The notes beneath the pieces were generated by a model that saw only the letters and a program-made list of their open reading frames with translations, had not been told where the DNA came from and did not search any database. Positions 36,904-46,558 of a DNA stretch of 63,148 nt are shown piece by piece. A program made the position numbers and the translations under genes. Origin of the DNA: an uncultured Eubacteriales bacterium (lineage in GTDB: Bacteria; Acidobacteriota; Aminicenantia; Aminicenantales; Saccharicenantaceae). The stretch covers positions 1 to 63,148 of the forward strand of contig CAZZCH010000007.1 in assembly GCA_964652895.1 (NCBI GenBank), read 5' to 3'. Position 1 is the stretch's first letter. Each line of letters begins with the position of its first letter.

Positions 36904-39900
36904 TTATTTTTCGGATCGACCGACCCGTTTGAGCCGGTTCGTCATTTCCTTGAAGCTGATCACCTTGTCGGGCTCCCGGTTAATGACACTTATACCAAAA
37001 AGCGCCGGTTTCTTCACCAGGTATTCGACGCCGCGGTCATGGATCGTGCCGTTCAGGGTGAAGGTGTCGTTGCGGAGCGTGCTGACGAGGCCCAGCTTCT
37101 GATAATGGAAGCCCCGGACGAGGCTCATCCAGAAGCCGCCCGTCCCGGCGGACGCCTGCTGGCCGGAGCTGAGCACCGTCAGATTGTCCACGGCCTTCAG
37201 GCTGAACGTCTGCGCCACCCCCTTGCGCGGCACGGACTCGAGGCGGAACTCGAACCGTTCCGGCTGGCCGTAAGAGATGACCAGGTTGCGGACCTCGCCG
37301 CTGACGATCCCGGTCACCTCGCCGAAGGGGACCTCATCCGTCAGCTTCTTCAGGTCGAGGCCGAGGAGGTCGATGTTGAGCGAGATGGACCGGTTCGCGG
37401 CGAACGGCCTGGCCACGGCGAGGTCGCGGAGGACGACCTTGCCGCCGAAAACATCGGCTTCGCCGCGTCCGGAAATAGCGATCTCCCGGGAGCTGATATC
37501 GAGGCGGGGGAACTCAGCCCGGATCTTGCCGGTCAACTTGAACTGCGGAGATTGGATCGGGAAGCGGGCGATGTCGATCTCGCGGAGGGCCAGGGAGCCG
37601 ATGCCCCGAAGGGCGCCGCTTTGCGCGTCGACGCGGAAGGTCGTCCGGCCGAGTTCGAGCCGGCCGCCGAAAAGCTCCAGGACGAGGGGTTCGATGGCGA
37701 AAGCGTTCGTGCCGACCCGGAGCGACACGGCCACGGGCTTCAAGGTCAGGAAGGGGCTCTGGATCTCGGCGATCCGGAGAAACCCTTCATCGGAGAGCGG
37801 GCTTTCGGGGAGGGCCTGCACGGCGCCTCCGGTCTCGTAATGGATGGGGAGCTCGGCGGCGACGCCCAGAAGCAGAGTTTTCGACGATGGAAGTTCGAGA
37901 CTGGTATCGGCGAGGGTCAGTTTGCCCTTGACCGAGAGCGCGTCGCCTTCCCCCCGGACGAGCAGGCCGGCGCCAAGCGTCCCCTCGACGCTCATCCGGT
38001 TCTCCTGGGCCACCCCGGCCTGGGTGTAGAGGGAGTAGAGCGGCCCGAGGCTCAGGCGGGCGTCCGTGCGCAGGTCGAAGGACGGAGCGGGCCTTAACGA
38101 GATCGAGCCGGCGACGTTGACTTCGCCGATCGTCGGAAAGAAGAAACGCGCCGCGAGTCCGTCGAGTCCGCCCGAGCCGGTGTCGTAGCGCCCGGCAAGG
38201 GTCGCTTTGAGGGGGTGCTTGTTCCAGGAGACGTAGACCGCCTTCCACAGCGATTCGCCCTGGCCGATGTCGAGAGCGCCGGTGAAAGAGATCCCCTTCG
38301 AAGCGCCATAGGCACCTTCGAACTTCAGCACGGGATCGAGCCCTTCGCCTGCAATCGTGAATGACGGGTCGTTGAACCGGACCTGGGCCAGGGCAACGGT
38401 GCCCGAGAATCCGTAGCTTTCCCCCGAAAGGGCCGGACGGACGGCCTCGATCGAAAGGTCGGCCATGCCGCCAAGGTCCCAGCCGGCAAAACTCTCGGGG
38501 ATGAAGGGTGAAGCGAGACCCCGGAGGGCCGGAATGTCCAGGCCATGGCTTTCGAGCTTGACCCGGGCCACGCCCGCTTTCCCCGATCCGTATCGCCCCG
38601 TCACGAAGAGCGGGGCGAGACCGGGGAGCTGGACTTCAAGCGGATCGACGGCCACGGTTTTCCGGTCGAGGTCCAGGCGCGCCTTCCCGGCGAGCGTGAT
38701 CTTATCGAAAGAGATCTTCTTCCCCTCGGCGACGTCGAGATCGACGTTCTTGATCGTGGCCGTGAGCCGGGAGATGTCCGCCGCCTTTTTCGTCGCCGTC
38801 CCGACCAGATGGAGGTCCGAGCCGCCGACGGATAATGCGCCAAGCGCGACCTGGCCGAGGGACGACCGGATGTCGGCCGCGAGGCGGGGAGCGCTCGAAG
38901 GCCCGGACGCGTCGACCCGGCCGGAAAGCTTGACATGGAGAGGCATCCCGCCGAGGACGTGGTCCAATTCCACGCCTTCCAGGGCGAGCGATCCGGTGAG
39001 GCTGTCGTTGGTCTCCTGGCTCGTACGGTGGATCCCGTACTTCCCGGAAAGTTCCACCCGGCCCCGGAGCTTGGCGTTTTGGAACTCCGCGGGCAGACGG
39101 GGCCCGAGGAGTGCGGCCAGGTTCTCGAGGCTGTCGACGCTGGCACGGACCTCGGCCTCGAGGAAAACGCTGTGGCCGAACCTCCCCACGGCCGTGCCGT
39201 CGATATTGAGAAGCCCCGGGACGGCGAGCTTCAACCGGGAGATGAGGAGCTCATTCAGGCCCGCGTCGAACTTGCCCGTCGTCTCGACCGTGAGGCCGGT
39301 GAGGGAATCGTCGATGCCGCCCGCGGCGAACCGCGGCGAGCTGAACGAGAACGCGGCGGCGAGGCCGAAGGGCGAAGCCAGCCGGAGAGTGCCCGACGAG
39401 CTCAGGCCGCTGGCCAGGCTGTAGGCTCCCCCCTTGTCCGTGACGCCGATGTCACAGCGCCCGATGGAATAGGCAACCTCACCGAAAGCATTTCCGGTCG
39501 TCAGGGAGATATAAAAATTCCCCAGGCTCACTTGTTGAGAGGCGAGTGATATCGAAAGACCGGCGTTCACGATCGAGATCCGTTCGGCCCAGGCCAGGGC
39601 GTCGGACGCCTGAACGAGGAGCGCTTCGATGTCCAGCGGCTCTTCGGAAACGGCTTTCTGCTCCAGGAGGAAGACGACGCCGTCGGCTTCGATCGTTTCG
39701 AACGCCGGCTTGCGCCCGCGGACGATCTTCCAGAAATCCCCCCTGGCCTCGAGGCGTTTCAGGGAGATATCCATCTTCTGGAAAGCGGTCTCCTGGCCGA
39801 GCTCGAGCGCGTCGACCGAGAGGCGGAAGGGGAAGAGTGCGTAGTCGAGCTTGCCGATGCGGACCGTCATCCCCGCCCTTTTCGCGAGCTGGCCTTGGAG

Positions 39901-40023
39901 AATATTCCTGACGAGCGGTTTGTCGAAGATGAAAAGGAGCGATGCGGCGACAACGAGGAGGGCGACAAGGCCAAGGACGATGCCCGTTACCTTGAGGGTC
40001 TTCTTCAGCGCTTTCTTCATCAT
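36904..40023 (-). CDS. AsmA-like/YdbH-family bridge lipid-transfer protein
   Basis: N-terminal TM anchor, long beta-rich body, C-terminal FGG.V / F.Y.KLG; next to ydbL. Confidence 0.75.
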   Translation of the reverse strand: MMKKALKKTLKVTGIVLGLVALLVVAASLLFIFDKPLVRNILQGQLAKRAGMTVRIGKLDYALFPFRLSVDALELGQETAFQKMDISLKRLEARGDFWKIVRGRKPAFETIEADGVVFLLEQKAVSEEPLDIEALLVQASDALAWAERISIVNAGLSISLASQQVSLGNFYISLTTGNAFGEVAYSIGRCDIGVTDKGGAYSLASGLSSSGTLRLASPFGLAAAFSFSSPRFAAGGIDDSLTGLTVETTGKFDAGLNELLISRLKLAVPGLLNIDGTAVGRFGHSVFLEAEVRASVDSLENLAALLGPRLPAEFQNAKLRGRVELSGKYGIHRTSQETNDSLTGSLALEGVELDHVLGGMPLHVKLSGRVDASGPSSAPRLAADIRSSLGQVALGALSVGGSDLHLVGTATKKAADISRLTATIKNVDLDVAEGKKISFDKITLAGKARLDLDRKTVAVDPLEVQLPGLAPLFVTGRYGSGKAGVARVKLESHGLDIPALRGLASPFIPESFAGWDLGGMADLSIEAVRPALSGESYGFSGTVALAQVRFNDPSFTIAGEGLDPVLKFEGAYGASKGISFTGALDIGQGESLWKAVYVSWNKHPLKATLAGRYDTGSGGLDGLAARFFFPTIGEVNVAGSISLRPAPSFDLRTDARLSLGPLYSLYTQAGVAQENRMSVEGTLGAGLLVRGEGDALSVKGKLTLADTSLELPSSKTLLLGVAAELPIHYETGGAVQALPESPLSDEGFLRIAEIQSPFLTLKPVAVSLRVGTNAFAIEPLVLELFGGRLELGRTTFRVDAQSGALRGIGSLALREIDIARFPIQSPQFKLTGKIRAEFPRLDISSREIAISGRGEADVFGGKVVLRDLAVARPFAANRSISLNIDLLGLDLKKLTDEVPFGEVTGIVSGEVRNLVISYGQPERFEFRLESVPRKGVAQTFSLKAVDNLTVLSSGQQASAGTGGFWMSLVRGFHYQKLGLVSTLRNDTFTLNGTIHDRGVEYLVKKPALFGISVINREPDKVISFKEMTNRLKRVGRSEK

Positions 40024-40080: not shown

Positions 40081-40226
40081 AGGGTAAAGCCTACGACCGG
40101 GAGCGGATTCTGAGAAGCGACCAACAGAAGTGCGGCGGAGCAGCCCGGAGGCGCACTTCTGGGAAATATCCGAATGGTAATGAAAAAAGCGTAAAAATCA
40201 ACCTTGGTTCCCTTTTGGTCGGACGA

Positions 40227-42116
40227 TCATCGATCCGAGGCGACAAGCGAAACGCGGCCGTCGAAGTCCGTGACGACCACTTCCCGGCCGCTGAGGGGTG
40301 TAACCGTGTTGAGGAGCGCCACGCCGACCCGGTGCTTCCATTTCAGGGTGCCCGTCGCGCCGTCGAGGGCCAGGAGCAGGCCGTTTTTCGTTCCGTAGAA
40401 AACGACGCCGTCCTTCTCCACGAGCTGGGCCGAATTGATATCGGAGCCGAAACCGGCGTCCGTCTCCCAGACGGCTTCGGAGCCGTCGGCGGAGGGCGAG
40501 ATCGCGGCGATGATGTCCTCGGTCGTCCGGACATAGACGCGTTGGCCGTCTTCCGAGAGCCCTATCGATTCGCGGACGGCCCAATTATCGGTACCCCAGA
40601 TCTCGCGTCCCGTGGCCAGGTCGATGGCCGTCATCCAGGGATCCGGAGCGACGACGAAAACACGCCCGTTCGCGGCGACCGGCCAGCAGGCGGCGGGAGA
40701 ATAGTACGGGCTCGGCTTCTCACCCTGCCACTTCCAGGCGAGCTTGCCGGTCTTCATATCGAGGGCGTAAAGACAGCCGTCCCAGGCGCCGAAGACAACC
40801 TTGCCGTCCGCTACGAGCGGTTTCGTTTCCACGAACCCCTCGATCCCGTCGTTGCTCCAGACGGTCCGGCCGGTGGCCAGATCGATGGCTCGGAAGACGT
40901 GGTCGCTCGAGCCGATATAGACGACGCCGCTGGCGACGCACGCGGCGGCGACGACGGGGCCGCCCGTTACGACTTTCCAGGCAGGCGTTCCGGTCCGGAC
41001 GTCCAAAGCGTAGATCGTCCCATCCGTGCCCCCGAAGACGACCCGATTGCCCCCTGTGGCCGGTGTCGAGTAGACGGGATCGTCCGTCTTGAACTCCCAG
41101 GCGATGCTGCCGTCGGTGATACGGAGGGCGCGTACGGCCCCCGAGGCGTCGCCGAAGACGACGGTCTCGCCGGCGGCGGAGGCCGCGGACGCGATCGTCC
41201 AGCCCGCGTCGAAACGCCAGCGCACGCGGACCTGAGGAAAAAGTTGGTTGACGGCAAAATCAGGCCGGGGCGTGAGGCCGGCGGGCCGGCCCGCCGCGAC
41301 GATCGGAAGACCGCCCTTCTTGAGCACGATCTGATGCCACGGAGGGCGCGTCTTGCCCGCGGTCCTTTCGGCGAAGGTCATGGCCTTGGCCCCGACCTCC
41401 ACGATCGTGTAGCCGGAGGCCGCTTCTTTCGTGCCCAGGTTGGCCCGGCCCATGACACCTTGCAGGCCTTCGAAGTCCATAGCCCGGTTCTTGTGGCCGT
41501 GCCCGACCAGAACCGCGACCGTGGGGATCGTTTTCAGCTTGTCCAGGACGACGTACCAGTTGGCGATGCTCTCATCGAGGGGATAGTGGCTGACGAAGAC
41601 GGTCGGTTTCGTCGCCCCGCCCGGCTCCGCCAGGAGGCCCTCCAGCCAGCGGACGTCCTGGGGCGCCCAATTTCCGTCGCCCATCCTCAGGACGGGCCCC
41701 TGGGAGAGCCCGATGAACCGGAAGCCGCCGCTCTCGAAGGCGAAGCGGTCGGAGCCCCAGAGCCGCGTGAAATCCGAGCCGCCCGATCCCGACCATTTCG
41801 TGTCGTGATTGCCGGGGATGATGTGATAGGGAACGCGGAGGCCGTCGAGGATGTCCTTGGCCAGACGGAGATTCGTGTAGGATCCCATTTCGGCGATGTC
41901 CCCCGTCACCAAGACAAAAGACAGGCCGGGCCGGGCGTTGATGTCCGAGACGGAGGCCCGGAGGTCATCGGCGCCGCGGTCCGATCCGACATGCGTATCG
42001 CTCAGCCAGGCGAAGCGAAGTGGCCCGCGCGGAGCGGCGGGGCTGGCGGCCATCAGGAGGACGACGAGTGCGGTGCAGATGACGGCCGCCACCGTCCAGG
42101 TCTTCTTCGCCGCCAT
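40227..42116 (-). CDS. Calcineurin-like metallophosphoesterase fused to PQQ/BamB-like beta-propeller
   Basis: SDTH, TGD, PGNHD, SHYP, GHGH; repeated LD..TG...W. Confidence 0.9.
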   Translation of the reverse strand: MAAKKTWTVAAVICTALVVLLMAASPAAPRGPLRFAWLSDTHVGSDRGADDLRASVSDINARPGLSFVLVTGDIAEMGSYTNLRLAKDILDGLRVPYHIIPGNHDTKWSGSGGSDFTRLWGSDRFAFESGGFRFIGLSQGPVLRMGDGNWAPQDVRWLEGLLAEPGGATKPTVFVSHYPLDESIANWYVVLDKLKTIPTVAVLVGHGHKNRAMDFEGLQGVMGRANLGTKEAASGYTIVEVGAKAMTFAERTAGKTRPPWHQIVLKKGGLPIVAAGRPAGLTPRPDFAVNQLFPQVRVRWRFDAGWTIASAASAAGETVVFGDASGAVRALRITDGSIAWEFKTDDPVYSTPATGGNRVVFGGTDGTIYALDVRTGTPAWKVVTGGPVVAAACVASGVVYIGSSDHVFRAIDLATGRTVWSNDGIEGFVETKPLVADGKVVFGAWDGCLYALDMKTGKLAWKWQGEKPSPYYSPAACWPVAANGRVFVVAPDPWMTAIDLATGREIWGTDNWAVRESIGLSEDGQRVYVRTTEDIIAAISPSADGSEAVWETDAGFGSDINSAQLVEKDGVVFYGTKNGLLLALDGATGTLKWKHRVGVALLNTVTPLSGREVVVTDFDGRVSLVASDR

Positions 42117-42247
42117 CCTGTCTTCTCCTCGCACGGCTCGATCGCGTACCCGATCAAATCCTATGGCCACTCCCTCACGATGTCAACCGGCGTGTGCCAC
42201 GTAATGGACCGCCCCATACCGTCCGTGCGATCGGATACGTTCGGCGG

Positions 42248-42465
42248 ATTGACTCCCTTCGGCCCAAGGGGTAATCTAAGGCCAACTCAAGACACCTATC
42301 ACGGGGAGACCCACGATGTCTCAAAACGCATGGGAAAGACGGGATTTCCTTAAATCGCTCCTGGCCGGAATGCCGCTCCTCGCTTGGGACTGGAACGCCT
42401 TTCCGCGCGGCGGCCAGGACAAAACCCCGCCGGGGACTTACGACGCCATCGTCATCGGCGCCGGC
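42248..42465 (+). pseudogene. Truncated duplicate of the promoter and first 50 codons of the FAD oxidoreductase gene
   Basis: Matches 44846..45064; about the last 130 bp are identical. Confidence 0.92.
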
Positions 42466-42836
42466 TTGCGGCCGCGGACGAGCTTCCAGAAATCTCCCTT
42501 GGCCTGGAGGCGTTTCAGGGAGACGTCCATCTTCTGGAAGGCATTCTCCTGACCGAGCTCGAGCGCGTCGACGGTGATGCGGAAGGGGAAGAGCGAGTAG
42601 TCGAGCTTGCCGATGCGGACTGTCATCCCCGCTCTTTTTGCGAGCTGGCTTTGGAGGAGGTTCCTGACGAGCGGCTTGTCGAAGATGAAAAGGAGCGATG
42701 CGGCGACAACGAGGAGGGCGACAAGGCCAAGGACGATGCCCGTTACCTTGAGGGTCTTCTTCAGCGCTTTTTTTACCATGCCGCACGACGATTATAACAT
42801 TGTTTAGTCGGCTGAGCTTTCCAGAAGGTTCCAGAA
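42459..42836 (-). pseudogene. Truncated duplicate of the ydbH-like 5' end
   Basis: Matches 39703..40080; fused at CGCCGGC to the oxidoreductase fragment. Confidence 0.92.
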
Positions 42837-42879
42837 GGGGTCAAACCTACCTTTTGCTGCAAAAGGTAGGTTTGACCCC
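42837..42879. repeat. Perfect palindrome (21-bp arms), REP-like
   Basis: GGGGTCAAACCTACCTTTTGC-T-GCAAAAGGTAGGTTTGACCCC. Confidence 0.85.
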
Positions 42880-42886
42880 CCTTCTG

Positions 42887-42917
42887 ATTGACATCTCCCC
42901 GGGTAGTGGGCTATCGT
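42887..42917 (+). promoter_or_regulatory. Putative sigma70 promoter of the Tat-protein/YcaO unit
   Basis: TTGACA followed by TATCGT at about 18 bp spacing. Confidence 0.45.
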
Positions 42918-42953
42918 TGAGCCATCTTCAGCGGATTGCTCGTAGAGGAGGAC

Positions 42954-43535
42954 ATGATGAGTCGAAGGATAATCTCCCGCCGGGACGCCCTCGGCGTCAT
43001 CGGAAAGACGGGCGCGGCGCTCGGCGCCGGCACCTGCTTTTTCCTGAGTTTGAAAACCTCCCCGCTTCTCGGCGCCATCGGCGATGGGCCCGGTCCGGGC
43101 AGGGGACAGGCGAAGTCTCCTCGCCTGAAAATCGCGCCACAAGTCGCCGAAAAGGTCGTCGTCAGCGGTTCGGGTTCGACGCTTATCTTCAAGATCTCCG
43201 GGCCGGCGGGACGCCATTGCGGTGTCTCTTTCGCCACGGCCGATGCCCGCGACCGCTTCAAGGCCGCCACCAACGCCCGGGGTCTCATCGGCGAAAACGG
43301 ACTGGCCACCATCGAGGTCGACGCCAAGGGCCTTCCGAACGGAAAGGTCTTTCTCCGGGTCGTGACGGGCGCCTCGGGCAAATTCAGCAAGGACCTCCGG
43401 GGGACACAGGCCTTCGAGGTCACCATTTCCAATGGCGTCATGACAAAATTCGGCGGCGTCCGCGAGAGGCCTCTGGAAAGCGCTTCGGTCGCCGTCTCCG
43501 TGGCCGCGGCCGGATATCATTCAAAGAGCCGTTAA
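42954..43535 (+). CDS. Tat-signal hypothetical protein (193 aa)
   Basis: GAGGAGG RBS; ISRRDALG twin-arginine motif plus hydrophobic stretch; beta-strand-rich mature part. Confidence 0.8.
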   Translation: MMSRRIISRRDALGVIGKTGAALGAGTCFFLSLKTSPLLGAIGDGPGPGRGQAKSPRLKIAPQVAEKVVVSGSGSTLIFKISGPAGRHCGVSFATADARDRFKAATNARGLIGENGLATIEVDAKGLPNGKVFLRVVTGASGKFSKDLRGTQAFEVTISNGVMTKFGGVRERPLESASVAVSVAAAGYHSKSR

Positions 43536-43594
43536 ATCGCGGTCCTGACCGCGGAGCACGAAGGGACACCTTTTTGCGATCGGACATTCCCCCC

Positions 43595-44845
43595 ATGGCG
43601 CGCGGAGGAAGAAGCGGGATCGCTCTCCGGCGGCGCCGCGTCTGCTATTCCGGAAACGGGCTCCGCTCGGTCCCCCTCAATAAGACGCTGGCCGGTATCG
43701 AAAATTATTTCCTGACCGGCGGCGCAGAAGCTCAATTCGAGATGATCCACGGGGCCGCCGACGGCTGCCTCCGCGCCGTCCTGGAATACCTGCCTCCGCC
43801 GGGAGAGCCGGAAAACCAGAGATACTTCGGAAAGGGAGTGACCGCGGGGCAGACTCTGGCCAGCGCCTGCATGGAGTTCATCGAGAGACAGTCCGCTAAA
43901 ATGAAACCCGGGGACGGTCTGCTCGAGGCGAGCTACCCCGAGGTCGCTTCGGACGCCCGCGACCCCGTCCTTTTTTCCATTGCGAAGGAAGCGGGTTACG
44001 AACCGGCTAAACGGATCGATTGGATTTGGGGCTATTCCCTGACGAGGTCGGAGCCCGCGCTCGTCCCGGCGAACCTGGTTTTTTTTCCCTACGAGACGGA
44101 CCCGGGCGAAAAATATATCACCTGGACCGACTCCAACGGATTGGCATCAGGCAATAATCTCGAGGAAGCGGTCCTCCACGGAATCCTGGAAGTCATCGAG
44201 AGGGATGCCGTAGTCATCGCCGAGTACAACCGGCTTCCGTTCGCCGGGATCAAGGCGGACGGTCTGTCTTCCGAAGCCGTCCCGGGCCTGGATCGCCTGG
44301 AAGCCGCGGGATACTCATGCTCGTTCAGGGCCGTCCCGACGGATATCTCCATCAACGCCGTAGCGGTCTTCCTTCGCCATGAGGACGACTCAGCGAATTG
44401 CTGCGTGGCCTTTGGGTGCCACCTGGATCCCGGCCTGGCCATGGCTCGGGCCCTCACCGAGGCTATCCAGCTCCTCCCGCCCACCGTCAATCATGGAGGA
44501 TGGCTTCTCTCCGGGTCGCCCGAGCGCTACGCCGCCCGGCCCTCGCGCGAGATCCCCTTCGACGGCTTGAGAAGCTCGGCCTCCGCCGACCTCAAGGACA
44601 ATATCGAAGCGTGCGTGGCGATCCTGAAAGACATCGGGTCCGAGGTCATCATCGTCGACCTGAGCCTCCCGGATATCCCTTTCTCGGCCGTCCGCGTCCT
44701 CGCCACCGGACTTCAGCCTCTCCTCCACGAGGGCGACATGCGGCTCTCCCCGCGGTTCTTCGATGTTCCCGTCAAGCTGGGATTCCGCGATCGGCCTCGT
44801 GATCCGGCCGAGGTCAAGATCTGGCCCCTCTGCGGCTACCGGTGA
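43595..44845 (+). CDS. YcaO-family ATP-dependent amide-activating enzyme
   Basis: GKG...ASACMEFIER, LVPANLVF, DSNGLASG...EEAVLHGILEVIERD, RALTEAIQ; start uncertain (the N-terminal third of ORF 42800 is shadow). Confidence 0.9.
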   Translation: MARGGRSGIALRRRRVCYSGNGLRSVPLNKTLAGIENYFLTGGAEAQFEMIHGAADGCLRAVLEYLPPPGEPENQRYFGKGVTAGQTLASACMEFIERQSAKMKPGDGLLEASYPEVASDARDPVLFSIAKEAGYEPAKRIDWIWGYSLTRSEPALVPANLVFFPYETDPGEKYITWTDSNGLASGNNLEEAVLHGILEVIERDAVVIAEYNRLPFAGIKADGLSSEAVPGLDRLEAAGYSCSFRAVPTDISINAVAVFLRHEDDSANCCVAFGCHLDPGLAMARALTEAIQLLPPTVNHGGWLLSGSPERYAARPSREIPFDGLRSSASADLKDNIEACVAILKDIGSEVIIVDLSLPDIPFSAVRVLATGLQPLLHEGDMRLSPRFFDVPVKLGFRDRPRDPAEVKIWPLCGYR

Positions 44846-44914
44846 ATTGACTCTCCCCTGCCAAGGGGTTAAGCTAGGGCAACCTCAAGACAGGGATATC
44901 AGGGAGGCCCCGAG

Positions 44915-46558
44915 ATGTCGCAAAACATATGGGGGAGACGGGATTTCCTTAAATCGCTCCTGGCCGGAATGCCGCTCCTCGCTTGGGACTGGAACGCCTT
45001 TCCGCGCGGCGGCCAGGACAAAACCCCGCCGGGGACTTACGACGCCATCGTCATCGGCGCCGGCCTCGGCGGCCTCAGCGCGGCCGCGGCATTTGCCCGC
45101 CAAGGGTACAAGGTCCTCGTCCTCGAACAGCACAGCGTCCCCGGCGGCTACGCCTCCGCCTTCACCCGGCCGGGCGGCTTCACGTTCGACGTCTCCCTCC
45201 ATTCGACGACGGTCGGCATTCGCAACGGTATCCCCAACCTGATCGAGGGCTTTCCGGAGATCCAAGACGTCGCCTTCGTCCCCCACAAGACCCTTTACCG
45301 AACGATATATCCGGACTACGACATCCGGGTCCCGCACATGAACGTCCCCGGCTTCATCAAGACCTTGAAGGCGAATTTTCCGGACGAAGCGGAGGGCATC
45401 GACGGGATTTTCGCGGACATGAAGGGTCTTTCCGACGACGTCGGCAATCTTTCGGGCGCGGGCGGCCAGGTCGATATGTCCACGTTCCCCGCTAAATTCC
45501 CTCATCTCTTCAAGAACCTCAACAGGACCTGGGGGGCCATGGTCGACGACCGCATCAAGAACCCGAAGCTCAAGGCCGTCATATCGGGGCTCTGGGGCTA
45601 CTTCGGACTGCCCCCGTCCAAGCTTTCGCCTTTCTACTACGCTATGCCCCTCATGGGTTATCTTGAGGGCGGCGGCTATTACCCCGTCGGCACCTCGCAG
45701 AAGATCAGCGACGCCTTCGCCGGCCTGATCAAGAAAAACGGCGGCGAGATCAAGCTCAACACGCGCGTCGATAAGATCCTCACCCGCGACCACGCGGCCT
45801 ACGGGGTCAGGACCGCAGACGGCGCGGAATACCGCGGCCGGGCCGTCATCTCCAACGCCAACGCCGTGGACACGTTCACCCGGATGGTCGACGAAAAGGA
45901 ATTTCTCCAGGGCTTGCTGGCGCGCATGGACAAGCTCTCCGTCAGCTATTCGACCCTCCTCGTCTGGCTGGGCCTCAAGACGGACCTCGTCCGCAAGGTC
46001 GGGCTCAAGGAATCCGAGATCTTCTACAACACGGGTTACGACATCGAGGCCGATTACAAGGCCGTCATGGCCGGGGGCCTGCCGGACGATCCGGATTTCG
46101 GGCTGACCGTCTACGACAACCTCGGACCGGGCTTCTCACCCAAGGGAAAGAACACGCTCAATATCATCGCGACACAGGGCTTCGACTATTGGAAGAAGTT
46201 CGAGACCGATTATTTCTACGGCAACAAAGACGCCTACACGAAGGAGAAGATGCGCCTGGCCGACATCCTCATCGACAAGGCGGAGAAAACGCTCCTGCCC
46301 GGACTGCGGAAGGCCATCGAGGTCATGGAGGTCGCGACTCCGCTGACCAACCTGCGCTTCACGAGCAACCCGCGCGGCGCGATCTACGGCTGGGACCAGA
46401 CCGTGGACAACTCGGGCAACCGGCGCTTCCCGCAGACGACGCCCATCAAGAACCTTTACCTCTCCGGCGCCTGGACGTTCCCGGGCGGGGGGTACGGCGC
46501 CTGCATCCCCAGCGGCCTCGCCTGCTTCAGCCGGGTGATGGCGGACTGGAAGGTCTGA
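44915..46558 (+). CDS. Tat-exported FAD-dependent oxidoreductase, phytoene desaturase/CrtI-like superfamily
   Basis: GRRDFLK Tat motif; IVIGAGLGGL, ATPLT, GAIYG, NLYLSGAW.FPGGG. Confidence 0.88.
   Translation: MSQNIWGRRDFLKSLLAGMPLLAWDWNAFPRGGQDKTPPGTYDAIVIGAGLGGLSAAAAFARQGYKVLVLEQHSVPGGYASAFTRPGGFTFDVSLHSTTVGIRNGIPNLIEGFPEIQDVAFVPHKTLYRTIYPDYDIRVPHMNVPGFIKTLKANFPDEAEGIDGIFADMKGLSDDVGNLSGAGGQVDMSTFPAKFPHLFKNLNRTWGAMVDDRIKNPKLKAVISGLWGYFGLPPSKLSPFYYAMPLMGYLEGGGYYPVGTSQKISDAFAGLIKKNGGEIKLNTRVDKILTRDHAAYGVRTADGAEYRGRAVISNANAVDTFTRMVDEKEFLQGLLARMDKLSVSYSTLLVWLGLKTDLVRKVGLKESEIFYNTGYDIEADYKAVMAGGLPDDPDFGLTVYDNLGPGFSPKGKNTLNIIATQGFDYWKKFETDYFYGNKDAYTKEKMRLADILIDKAEKTLLPGLRKAIEVMEVATPLTNLRFTSNPRGAIYGWDQTVDNSGNRRFPQTTPIKNLYLSGAWTFPGGGYGACIPSGLACFSRVMADWKV

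Follow-up and report, generated by a model that had tools for sequence, protein, structure and literature searches.

A conserved cassette pairing a stand-alone YcaO with a putatively exported protein, its presumed substrate

The window analyzed here is one entire contig of 63,148 nucleotides (CAZZCH010000007.1) from a metagenome-assembled genome (MAG) of an uncultured bacterium assigned to the Aminicenantales (GCA_964652895.1; 3.47 Mb, 196 contigs, 95% complete, 3% contamination). Positions 42888-44845 hold a cassette made up of a promoter-like site, a gene for a protein with a twin-arginine N-terminus, here called the partner, and a gene for an intact stand-alone YcaO. The YcaO probably modifies its co-encoded partner of 192 amino acids post-translationally in the cytoplasm, before the partner is exported, and the two genes would constitute a self-contained, mobile system. 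Evidence for this reading comes from the conservation of the gene pair, from the sequences and models of the two proteins, and from a predicted complex between them.

The YcaO gene and its upstream neighbor

A scan with the YcaO alignment, taking one genome per species, yielded 80 loci. A partner homolog sits directly upstream of the YcaO gene in all 14 loci (L005-L018) whose YcaO is at least 42% identical, and ends about 60-140 nt 5' of it (in L006 only the end of the partner gene is on the contig). The corresponding distance in the window is 59 nt. The MAGs concerned are labeled Aminicenantes, Syntrophobacterales, Ignavibacteria, Bacteroidales and Prolixibacteraceae, delta proteobacterium, Desulfotignum, Eubacteriales and Sulfomarinibacteraceae, and the record titles of the 14 paired loci span at least six phylum-level groups. 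The reverse search, started from the partner, gave 19 metagenome loci, two of which end too early for pairing to be judged (L117 and L133); a YcaO follows directly downstream in 16 of the 17 that can be assessed. Fifteen pairs of YcaO and partner matches have an equal longest-contig size. Conserved pairing, on which the original prediction for this cassette hinged, is thus seen from either side, and the two genes form a conserved, self-contained pair.

Clustering of open reading frames (ORFs) revealed no third gene of 90 or more amino acids common across phyla in the 14 loci plus the window, the remaining clusters being antisense shadows or confined to close Bacteroidales. Nor was any ORF of 15-90 amino acids conserved within 1 kb in 16 loci plus the window, the only exceptions being shadows, in three Aminicenantes loci, of the gene that follows the cassette. 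Because only two genes recur in this clustering, the neighborhood has no conserved short precursor, E1-like protein, RRE (recognition element of peptides synthesized ribosomally and modified post-translationally, or RiPPs), TfuA, dehydrogenase, protease or transporter. TfuA (PF07812) likewise has no match at E <= 0.001 in the source genome (95% complete), in a search that did match its control, M. acetivorans. The original prediction had reported TfuA, E1-like proteins, RRE, flavin dehydrogenases, proteases and short precursors all missing nearby. That description fits every item except the flavoprotein: one such gene does adjoin the cassette, 69 nt downstream of the YcaO gene (gene C, below).

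Beyond about 40% YcaO identity the gene context differs. The nearest YcaO outside the partner-linked group, at 37% identity, is found in L019, where the upstream ORFs (170-762) resemble, by eye, the last part of a radical SAM protein of the SPASM type and a peptide-binding protein like PqqD; this looks like an ordinary RiPP context, marking the boundary of the clade.

Several single loci show irregularities. The partner gene is frameshifted in L013 (5372-5864) and in L016 (5855-5935); in the latter the shift falls in a G-run and the tail (...AAAAGMPNH) resumes in the +1 frame, which may reflect a long-read homopolymer error. Two cassette copies lie about 47 kb apart on the same Bacteroidales contig (L009 and L010), the second with its YcaO split into two ORFs. 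The YcaO proteins of L006 and L007 are nearly identical (branches 0.02-0.04) despite the labels Syntrophobacterales and Ignavibacteria, and L013, labeled 'delta proteobacterium', nests among Bacteroidota sequences. These placements point to either recent transfer or binning errors.

The cassette opens with the promoter-like site TTGACA-18-TATCGT (42888..42917, + strand), which matches at 10 of 12 positions. It is the single sigma-70-like site of the cassette region, against 0.4 expected by chance, and agrees with the promoter that had been proposed from the sequence. A ribosome-binding site, AGGAGG (42946..42951, + strand), lies 5 nt 5' of the ATG at 42957. The same promoter-like site and AGGAGGA are kept 5' of the partner gene in L005 and L130; the upstream neighbors of these two loci are unlike each other, yet the site is retained, and both signals move together with the cassette. 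The partner ORF in its longest form (42936-43535) would give 199 amino acids from a TTG, the ATG at 42954 gives 193 and that at 42957 gives 192. We set the start at 42957 (gene 42957..43535, + strand) because homologs begin MSR(R/K). The twin-arginine protein originally described, with SRRDAL near its start and the tail ERPLESASVAVSVAAAGYHSKSR, is therefore upheld in both features, but its length becomes 192 rather than 193 residues.

Characterization of the YcaO

The YcaO gene (43595..44845, + strand) encodes 416 amino acids with no signal peptide. Pfam model PF02624 matches the protein end to end (E 1.2e-71; score 242 bits, cut-off 25.7; positions 2-324 of the 325 in the profile), in agreement with the earlier description of an intact enzyme. 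It is a single-domain protein, covered over 100% of its length by homologs of 421-423 amino acids, and the only YcaO in the source genome. The AlphaFold2 model (pLDDT 91, pTM 0.93) gave Foldseek matches to the YcaO domain of LynD (TMq 0.86), to MusD (0.81-0.82) and to the M. jannaschii YcaO (0.78). Residues E94, E97, R98, E199, E202, R203, D204, R285 and E289 are invariant in 33 YcaO sequences; these may correspond to the family's ATP- and Mg2+-binding ligands.

In NCBIfam, the top-ranked family is TOMM SagD (TIGR03604), with 176 bits against a cut-off of 219.25. The YcaO also falls below the equivalog cut-offs of the McrA thioamidation type (TIGR03266; 170.6 bits against 365) and of the S12/uL16 type (NF040716; 33.5 bits against 700). 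A profile of the 33 members, run against all PDB sequences, matched MusD (E 5.4e-53), TruD (1.1e-51), M. jannaschii YcaO (8.1e-51), LynD (1.5e-49), M. kandleri YcaO (5.8e-36) and E. coli YcaO (1.9e-12). Because the profile and fold matches reach both groups, we place this YcaO between azoline formers and archaeal thioamide formers.

A quick maximum-likelihood tree, supported by SH-like approximate likelihood ratios (SH-aLRT) only, covers 84 rows. Besides the window these are 11 database proteins and the 72 loci, out of 80, that remain once L010, L018, L022, L032, L033, L056, L060 and L067 are set aside as split, truncated, stop-containing or too short. The 24 rows of high identity make up one side of a branch with SH-aLRT 98. 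This group stands apart from the methanogen and anaerobic methanotroph (ANME) group and from the Myxococcota group, and its nearest neighbors are Roizmanbacteria, DPANN archaea and L019. Calling the clade partner-linked rests on the loci, the neighborhood being out of view for 9 of the 11 database proteins. Judged by tree and scores, the partner-linked YcaO proteins appear to form a separate clade belonging to no characterized equivalog family that was scored; the finding that would have tied them to a known substrate, membership in such a family, did not emerge. For the YcaO proteins of the clade a single source name was encountered, 'YcaO-like family protein'.

A Pro-rich PxPxP C-terminus is a feature of TOMM cyclodehydratases. 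The window's protein ends in IWPLCGYR instead, as had been observed before. The end WPLCGYR (residues 410-416; 44822..44842, + strand) is specific to the clade: WP[LI]CGY[RK] occurs in L005-L015, variants of it in L016-L018, and neither in any of the other 66 loci. The expected CGY end is thus limited to partner-linked loci, and a C-terminus first called atypical does differ from PxPxP but is a clade-wide signature and not peculiar to this copy. Myxococcota relatives found in the same search end LNPxPLFL. The M. jannaschii YcaO, MJ1094, aligns only up to profile position 399, and cyclodehydratases reach the end of the alignment, so that the C-terminal extension here appears to have cyclodehydratase length without the Pro-rich sequence. 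All 33 sequences keep G414; conservation of C413 is at least 90%, with Val in place of Cys in P0035, P0056 and L018. Because Val replaces Cys in three members, an indispensable catalytic or sulfur-carrier Cys is unlikely, and the suggestion that the terminal Cys takes part in catalysis or sulfur transfer is not sustained; the invariant residue of this end is the Gly.

Characterization of the partner

The partner matches no Pfam or NCBIfam family, and Pfam searches at E <= 10 on 33 members brought up no recurrent family. A word-indexed search returned 62 homologs, none with a Pfam domain, and a partner profile run against 1.84 billion representatives hit 84 clusters, 50 of them below 1e-10. The family is small. 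The Joint Genome Institute (JGI) annotation names its members 'hypothetical protein'.

Residues 1-40 (42957..43076, + strand) resemble a twin-arginine signal, with SRRDAL followed by a hydrophobic stretch rich in Gly and Ala and then by FFLSLKTSPL. The motif RR[DENSK][AVF][LI] occurs near the start of 65 of 69 family members, R8, R9, F28, L32 and P36 are each at least 90% conserved, and the region following the motif shows unusually high conservation for a signal peptide. Its ending, L-[KT]-T-S-P, is kept even in distant members whose N-terminus lacks RR[DENSK][AVF][LI]. By inspection of motifs, the partner has the sequence characteristics of a substrate of twin-arginine translocation (Tat): the twin-arginine motif, a moderately hydrophobic stretch, and a TatC encoded in the genome (E 1.5e-67).

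In the AlphaFold2 model (overall pLDDT 69) the N-terminus is poorly defined, residues 38-61 form a disordered linker and the tail contains a low-confidence helix. Between linker and tail the model places an Ig-like beta-sandwich (residues 65-167; 43149..43457, + strand) in a block of pLDDT 73-90. VIA-align found generic Ig-like matches only, led by an Ig-like DUF3244 protein at Z 8.1, and Foldseek found no match in the PDB at E <= 0.001; the modeled fold is an Ig-like sandwich and nothing more specific. Apart from the N-terminus, this domain is the best-conserved part of the protein.

One candidate identity could not be confirmed. SoxY was the top neighbor by language-model score, at 0.78, but that score lies below the level of random sequences, and none of 33 members matches PF13501 at E <= 10. 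SoxY is outside the top 50 fold matches of the partner, and the genome search gave no match to SoxY either; SoxY occurs in 5 of 151 genomes of the phylum, too few for a comparison of profiles with the partner. SoxY presumably shares with the partner a layout in which a twin-arginine signal and an Ig-like body are joined by a short, flexible arm at the C-terminus that bears a motif of small residues. The partner, however, has no invariant Cys, and the likeness is one of analogy only.

The Ala-rich C-terminal tail, RPLESASVAVSVAAAGYHSKSR (residues 171-192; 43467..43532, + strand), is the presumed modification site on the grounds of Ala content, motif and model. Ala makes up 28% of the last 20 residues and 9% of the body among the 69 family members. 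The tails contain A[GC] in 48 of 69 and A[GC][YF] in 33, with Lys or Arg at the end in 64; A183 is at least 90% conserved. Ser or Thr is present in every tail. Cys is present in 41 of 69, and in a minority it occupies the G/C position. Distant members retain an Ala-rich tail as well (AAAG[YF], AVAGVRG). Two tandem forms of the partner, P0188 and P0193 (328-329 amino acids, no RR[DENSK][AVF][LI] at the N-terminus), have the order domain-tail-domain-tail. Each of their domains is followed by a motif resembling AAAG[YF], which shows that the tail need not be a free C-terminus.

These tails, taken with the affinities of the YcaO, raise the alternative of a classical RiPP with a giant leader, in which the ~170-residue Ig body and N-terminus would serve as leader, the tail would acquire azolines at Ser, Thr or Cys and be cut after the conserved R-E-R-P-L-E hinge, and a small bioactive peptide would result. 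Structured long leaders are known, according to the accessible part of PMC12455567. The best YcaO matches are cyclodehydratases, TOMM SagD heads the NCBIfam ranking, and Ser, Thr and Cys abound in the tails, which are more variable than the body. However, the protein remains under the SagD cut-off and lacks the PxPxP end, the neighborhood has no conserved gene for a protease, transporter, dehydrogenase, E1-like protein or RRE, the Ig domain that would be discarded is the best-conserved part besides the N-terminus, and a tail motif lying between two domains in P0188 and P0193 suits a feature of a protein better than a released peptide. We consider a giant leader unlikely, and prefer the reading in which the YcaO modifies a protein that is then exported.

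Predicted complex of YcaO and partner

The YcaO and the partner were co-folded three times, from our own alignments, beside three controls. The pair passes these controls, with a median ipSAE of 0.75 against 0.00 for the best of them; the runs share at least 67% of contacts, and partner pLDDT is at least 68. The prediction pairs partner residues 26-33 with YcaO 39-50 (expected error 0.8-1.4 A), the lowest-error contacts being those of partner 28-33 (FFLSLK) with YcaO 44-50, strand beside strand. YcaO L40, E45 and F48 and partner F28 and L32 are near-invariant residues of this interface. FFLSLK is the end of the presumed signal peptide, and this most confident of the predicted enzyme contacts had been overlooked by the original prediction; we know of no solved precedent for a signal-peptide strand in contact with a YcaO.

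In the same model, Ig-domain residues 64-81, 116, 153 and 165-168 rest on YcaO 32-40, and tail residues 171, 173, 181-182 and 184-186 (S, V, A, A, G) contact the active-site region of the YcaO. On the enzyme side the predicted tail contact involves residues 78, 85, 88, W177 to S180, 293, 298, 378 and G414-Y415-R416. Residues 78-88 flank the invariant G79-K80-G81, and W177 to S180 just precede the invariant N181-G182. The model supports binding of the two proteins and does not demonstrate it.

That the most confident contacts involve the signal-peptide strand and not the tail would also suit a YcaO that binds the partner without modifying it, either as chaperone or escort for the signal peptide or as an enzyme that the partner regulates or delivers to another target. 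On the other hand, the YcaO domain is complete, its motif residues E94, E97, R98, E199, E202, R203, R285 and E289 are invariant, as for an active enzyme, and the tail is conserved and predicted to lie at the active site. Binding alone is in our judgment improbable.

Still less probable is that the two genes are unrelated neighbors, the YcaO modifying a housekeeping protein, for example a ribosomal one as in E. coli, and the partner merely traveling along. The accessible text of PMC13063428 places the gene for uL16, the target of E. coli YcaO, elsewhere in the genome, and a partner gene without adjacent YcaO exists in L118. But neither cassette gene was found in 60 relatives, 36 of them of the same genus, so the YcaO has no core role; adjacency is strict across phyla while all other neighbors change; and the complex prediction passes its controls. 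Modification of the linked partner accounts better for these observations.

A proposed route of maturation and export

In the reading we prefer, the cassette promoter, observed as a conserved site, would drive transcription of both genes. Sequence and model show a preprotein in which the twin-arginine N-terminus is followed by a disordered linker, then by an Ig-like sandwich and last by the Ala-rich tail. Binding would be bipartite: F28-K33 would add as a strand to YcaO 45-50, so that the signal peptide would double as a leader for recognition by the enzyme, and the Ig domain would sit on helix 28-41. Tail residues S181-G186 would then lie at the active site, beside the C-terminal G-Y-R of the YcaO, where one backbone amide of the tail would be activated at the expense of ATP, as in the YcaO family. 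While bound, the YcaO would mask the signal peptide, and its release after modification would permit Tat export of the folded protein; the predicted hold on the signal peptide suggests a possible way to delay export. Modification followed by export is the simplest order because the YcaO has no signal peptide, its conserved neighbor has one of Tat type, and Tat carries proteins folded in the cytoplasm. The earlier proposal that YcaO acts on the folded protein or its Ser/Ala tail before export gains from the pairing and from the predicted position of tail residues 181-186; its pre-export order is one that we infer. At a guess, the mature periplasmic partner would present a modified swinging arm on an Ig-like body, binding or carrying a metal or sulfur species.

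Given a linked substrate, the chemistry depends on the nucleophile. A thioamide, formed with sulfide, is our tentative first choice, though at rather less than an even chance; an azoline, formed by Ser, Thr or Cys, is a weaker candidate, and the remaining outcomes, such as cleavage or an amidine, are together about as doubtful as the azoline. The thioamide is slightly favored because the enzyme stands alone with no E1-like protein or RRE, lies near the M. jannaschii YcaO, belongs to a family whose known protein substrates are thioamidated, and comes from a genome in which TfuA was not found. As set out in the accessible part of PMC13063428, all YcaO enzymes activate a backbone amide with ATP and differ in the nucleophile; the same text names MCR and uL16 as the two known protein substrates, both thioamidated, describes the uL16 enzyme as TfuA-independent, and notes that organisms of sulfide-rich settings may use sulfide directly. 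The hosts of the cassette, going by their taxon labels only, would be anaerobes.

A number of points count against this account or parts of it. Thioamide formation sits poorly with the best sequence and fold matches, since MusD, TruD and LynD form azolines and the C-terminal extension has their length, and an azoline is chemically possible because every tail offers Ser or Thr and many offer Cys. Modification of the partner is proposed on synteny and a model, and cleavage of its signal peptide and its export are predictions only. L017 and distant relatives have a Lys/Arg-rich N-terminus without RR[DENSK][AVF][LI], so the Tat route is not obligatory. Among solved complexes, 58 of 80 attain the ipSAE mark that serves for comparison, as do 2 of 110 among mismatched pairs; this calibration is only rough because our own alignments were used. 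The placement of the tail in the active site may owe something to the solved YcaO-peptide complexes of LynD and M. jannaschii YcaO. L118, with its partner gene, has a convergent 4Fe-4S gene where a YcaO would be expected. RNA-library contigs cover the partner gene and parts of the YcaO gene, but such contigs cannot prove transcription, and stretches left uncovered carry no meaning either.

A more elaborate version combines these elements: the YcaO would act both as maturation enzyme and as Tat 'proofreading' chaperone, reading the end of the signal peptide as a leader by strand addition, holding export, and placing a backbone thioamide or an azoline at the A-A-A-G/C-aromatic site of a swinging arm; the folded Ig-like protein would then be set free for the periplasm, where its sulfur-bearing arm could bind or carry a soft metal or a sulfur species. 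We give this combination a slim chance.

Comparison with known systems

By analogy, the system resembles both the protein-modifying YcaO enzymes of MCR and uL16 and the leader-guided enzymes of RiPP pathways. The YcaO responsible for McrA thioglycine (TIGR03266; structures 6PE3/6PEU of M. jannaschii MJ1094 and 6CI7 of M. kandleri) is likewise stand-alone, about 400 amino acids long and active on a protein, and TfuA-independent enzymes of this type are not known to use a partner protein. The present proteins differ in having bacterial hosts and a presumed substrate that is co-encoded, exported and unrelated to MCR, and also in the C-terminal extension that MJ1094 lacks, in the separate clade of the tree and in a score far below the equivalog cut-off. 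The cyclodehydratases LynD, TruD and MusD are the best matches in sequence (E 5.4e-53 to 1.5e-49) and structure (TMq up to 0.86) and share the C-terminal length, but the present YcaO has no fused or adjacent E1-like protein, Ocin-ThiF or RRE, no dehydrogenase, and ends in WPLCGYR. MusD indicates, going by the title of entry 7U58, that cleavage is also possible for the YcaO fold. The YcaO-TfuA thioamide systems differ in their TfuA, which was not found in the source genome.

Two further likenesses concern export. Tat proofreading chaperones of the TorD/DmsD/NapD type are cytoplasmic binders that hold one dedicated Tat signal peptide until maturation is done. In the present case that role would fall to the maturation enzyme, which is unrelated to them in sequence, and the likeness depends on the predicted interface. 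Bufferins, which carry a Sec signal, are modified by MNIO enzymes, a different enzyme family, and for the partner there is no evidence of metal binding. In the accessible part of PMC12452194, bufferins are protein-sized precursors with an export signal that are modified in the cytoplasm and act outside it, which is the order proposed here.

E. coli YcaO, which thioamidates uL16, is also stand-alone and TfuA-free and, in the accessible text of PMC13063428, recognizes a folded protein through an extended surface. It is distant in sequence (E 1.9e-12) and has an extra TPR domain, according to the same part of PMC13063428. Its substrate is a core protein encoded elsewhere, whereas the genes described here are an accessory, mobile and linked pair.

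The enzyme superfamily and its general chemistry are known; what is new is the clade, together with its linked exported protein as presumed substrate and a signal peptide predicted to serve as leader. We found no publication that describes the pairing of a YcaO with either a twin-arginine or an Ig-like protein, although published network data (PMC13063428) may already include the cluster. Only two proteins with a YcaO-installed thioamide, MCR and uL16, are counted in the accessible part of PMC13063428, where more substrates are expected and no general way to find them is offered; the clade supplies a presumed substrate through gene linkage. If the reading is right, YcaO chemistry reaches secreted, folded proteins, RiPP-style leader recognition is tied to Tat quality control, a folded protein with a flexible tail is a new kind of YcaO target, and a Pfam-less 'hypothetical' family of Aminicenantes, Bacteroidales, Desulfobacterota-type and other uncultured groups acquires a function. 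Should the product be a thioamide made without TfuA, the cassette could help explain how sulfur is delivered to such enzymes. Should the YcaO act as chaperone and leader reader, the partner would be the third class of YcaO-modified protein and the first exported one, and its signal peptide the first to double as a leader peptide.

Mobility and rearrangement of the locus

The cassette is present in 2 of 65 genomes of the genus searched and appears to be horizontally mobile. Gene C (44915..46558), which begins 69 nt downstream of the YcaO gene, encodes a flavin adenine dinucleotide (FAD) oxidoreductase of the CrtI/amine-oxidase (carotenoid-isomerase) type, below all equivalog cut-offs, with a twin-arginine start of its own (RRDFLKSLLAG). 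It lies directly 3' of the cassette in those Aminicenantes loci that have downstream sequence on the contig, and not in other phyla. Because it is present in the genus without the cassette and is unconserved beside the cassette elsewhere, we regard it as a flanking gene. Gene B (40227..42170, - strand; 647 amino acids, metallophosphoesterase and PQQ-like beta-propeller with a hydrophobic N-terminus) is the usual occupant of the cassette site in most genomes of the genus. Upstream of gene C in 29 genus loci stand B in 25, the AsmA-like gene A in 2 and the cassette in 1 (L087, genome G064); the last, L110, ends at the start of C with its upstream gene out of view. The order in L005 is A-B-partner-YcaO-C, and L115, L116 and L120 likewise run from cassette to C with B upstream; L130 has A-partner-YcaO-C and L127 A-partner-YcaO.

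In the window, A and B come first. Next stand a 5' fragment of C (163 nt) and one of A (113 codons), and after these the partner gene, the YcaO gene and the complete C. The duplicated fragment of C (42303..42465, + strand), the left edge of a 2.6-kb insertion, is 94% identical to 44902-45064 at a spacing of 2599 nt. The duplicated AsmA-like N-terminal fragment (42438..42779, - strand; Pfam AsmA, DUF748), which would have come in along with the cassette, is 92% identical over 42459-42758 to 39703-40002, with a spacing of 2756 nt from the full gene A. Where the two fragments join, homology stops and only the microhomology CGCCGGC (7 nt) is shared. The arrangement would fit one crossover in the 5' end of C with a circularized 2.6-kb piece from a related strain of the order A-partner-YcaO-C. 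Presence and absence of the cassette at the same locus of the genus, together with this insertion and its microhomology junction, bear out the description of the pair as a swappable unit.

Public sequencing runs, which may stem from the same campaign as the MAG, give a view of the junction. Two RNA-library contigs bridge it: one in run X10 (42413-42866, 0 differences) and one in run X7 (42337-42819). Sediment run X12, from another study, has the cassette at 95-99% likeness with gene A running on to the left of 42458, which is the proposed donor order. Record 24 of X7 also contains a joint from 44935 to 42337, stepping back 2599 nt through 129 shared letters, that leads from the end of YcaO and start of C into the junction; it may represent a circle, a tandem copy of the 2599-nt unit or a misjoin. 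That the flanking fragments are an assembly chimera of two strains, and so say nothing of mobility, would be favored by the 196 contigs and 3% contamination of the MAG and by the X7 joint, whose 129 shared letters are a place where assemblers can misjoin, but it is the least probable alternative and one that concerns the flanks only: the junction shares about 7 nt, fewer than a k-mer misjoin would need, and is spanned in two runs that were assembled separately (X10 record 10, with 0 differences and a short side of at least 46 letters, and X7 record 24), and 30 further loci contain the cassette itself.

Just upstream of the cassette promoter, a scan for terminator-like structures found a perfect palindrome of 43 nt with a 20-bp stem (42837..42879, strand unassigned). 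In run X1 the palindrome forms a 43-nt contig of its own at depth 85, against about 11 for its neighbors, and many contigs break at 42831-42833 and 42879-42881 and continue into unlike sequence. It looks like a multi-copy repeat of the repetitive extragenic palindrome (REP) kind in the source community. A degenerate copy of it follows the AsmA-like gene, near position 40090.

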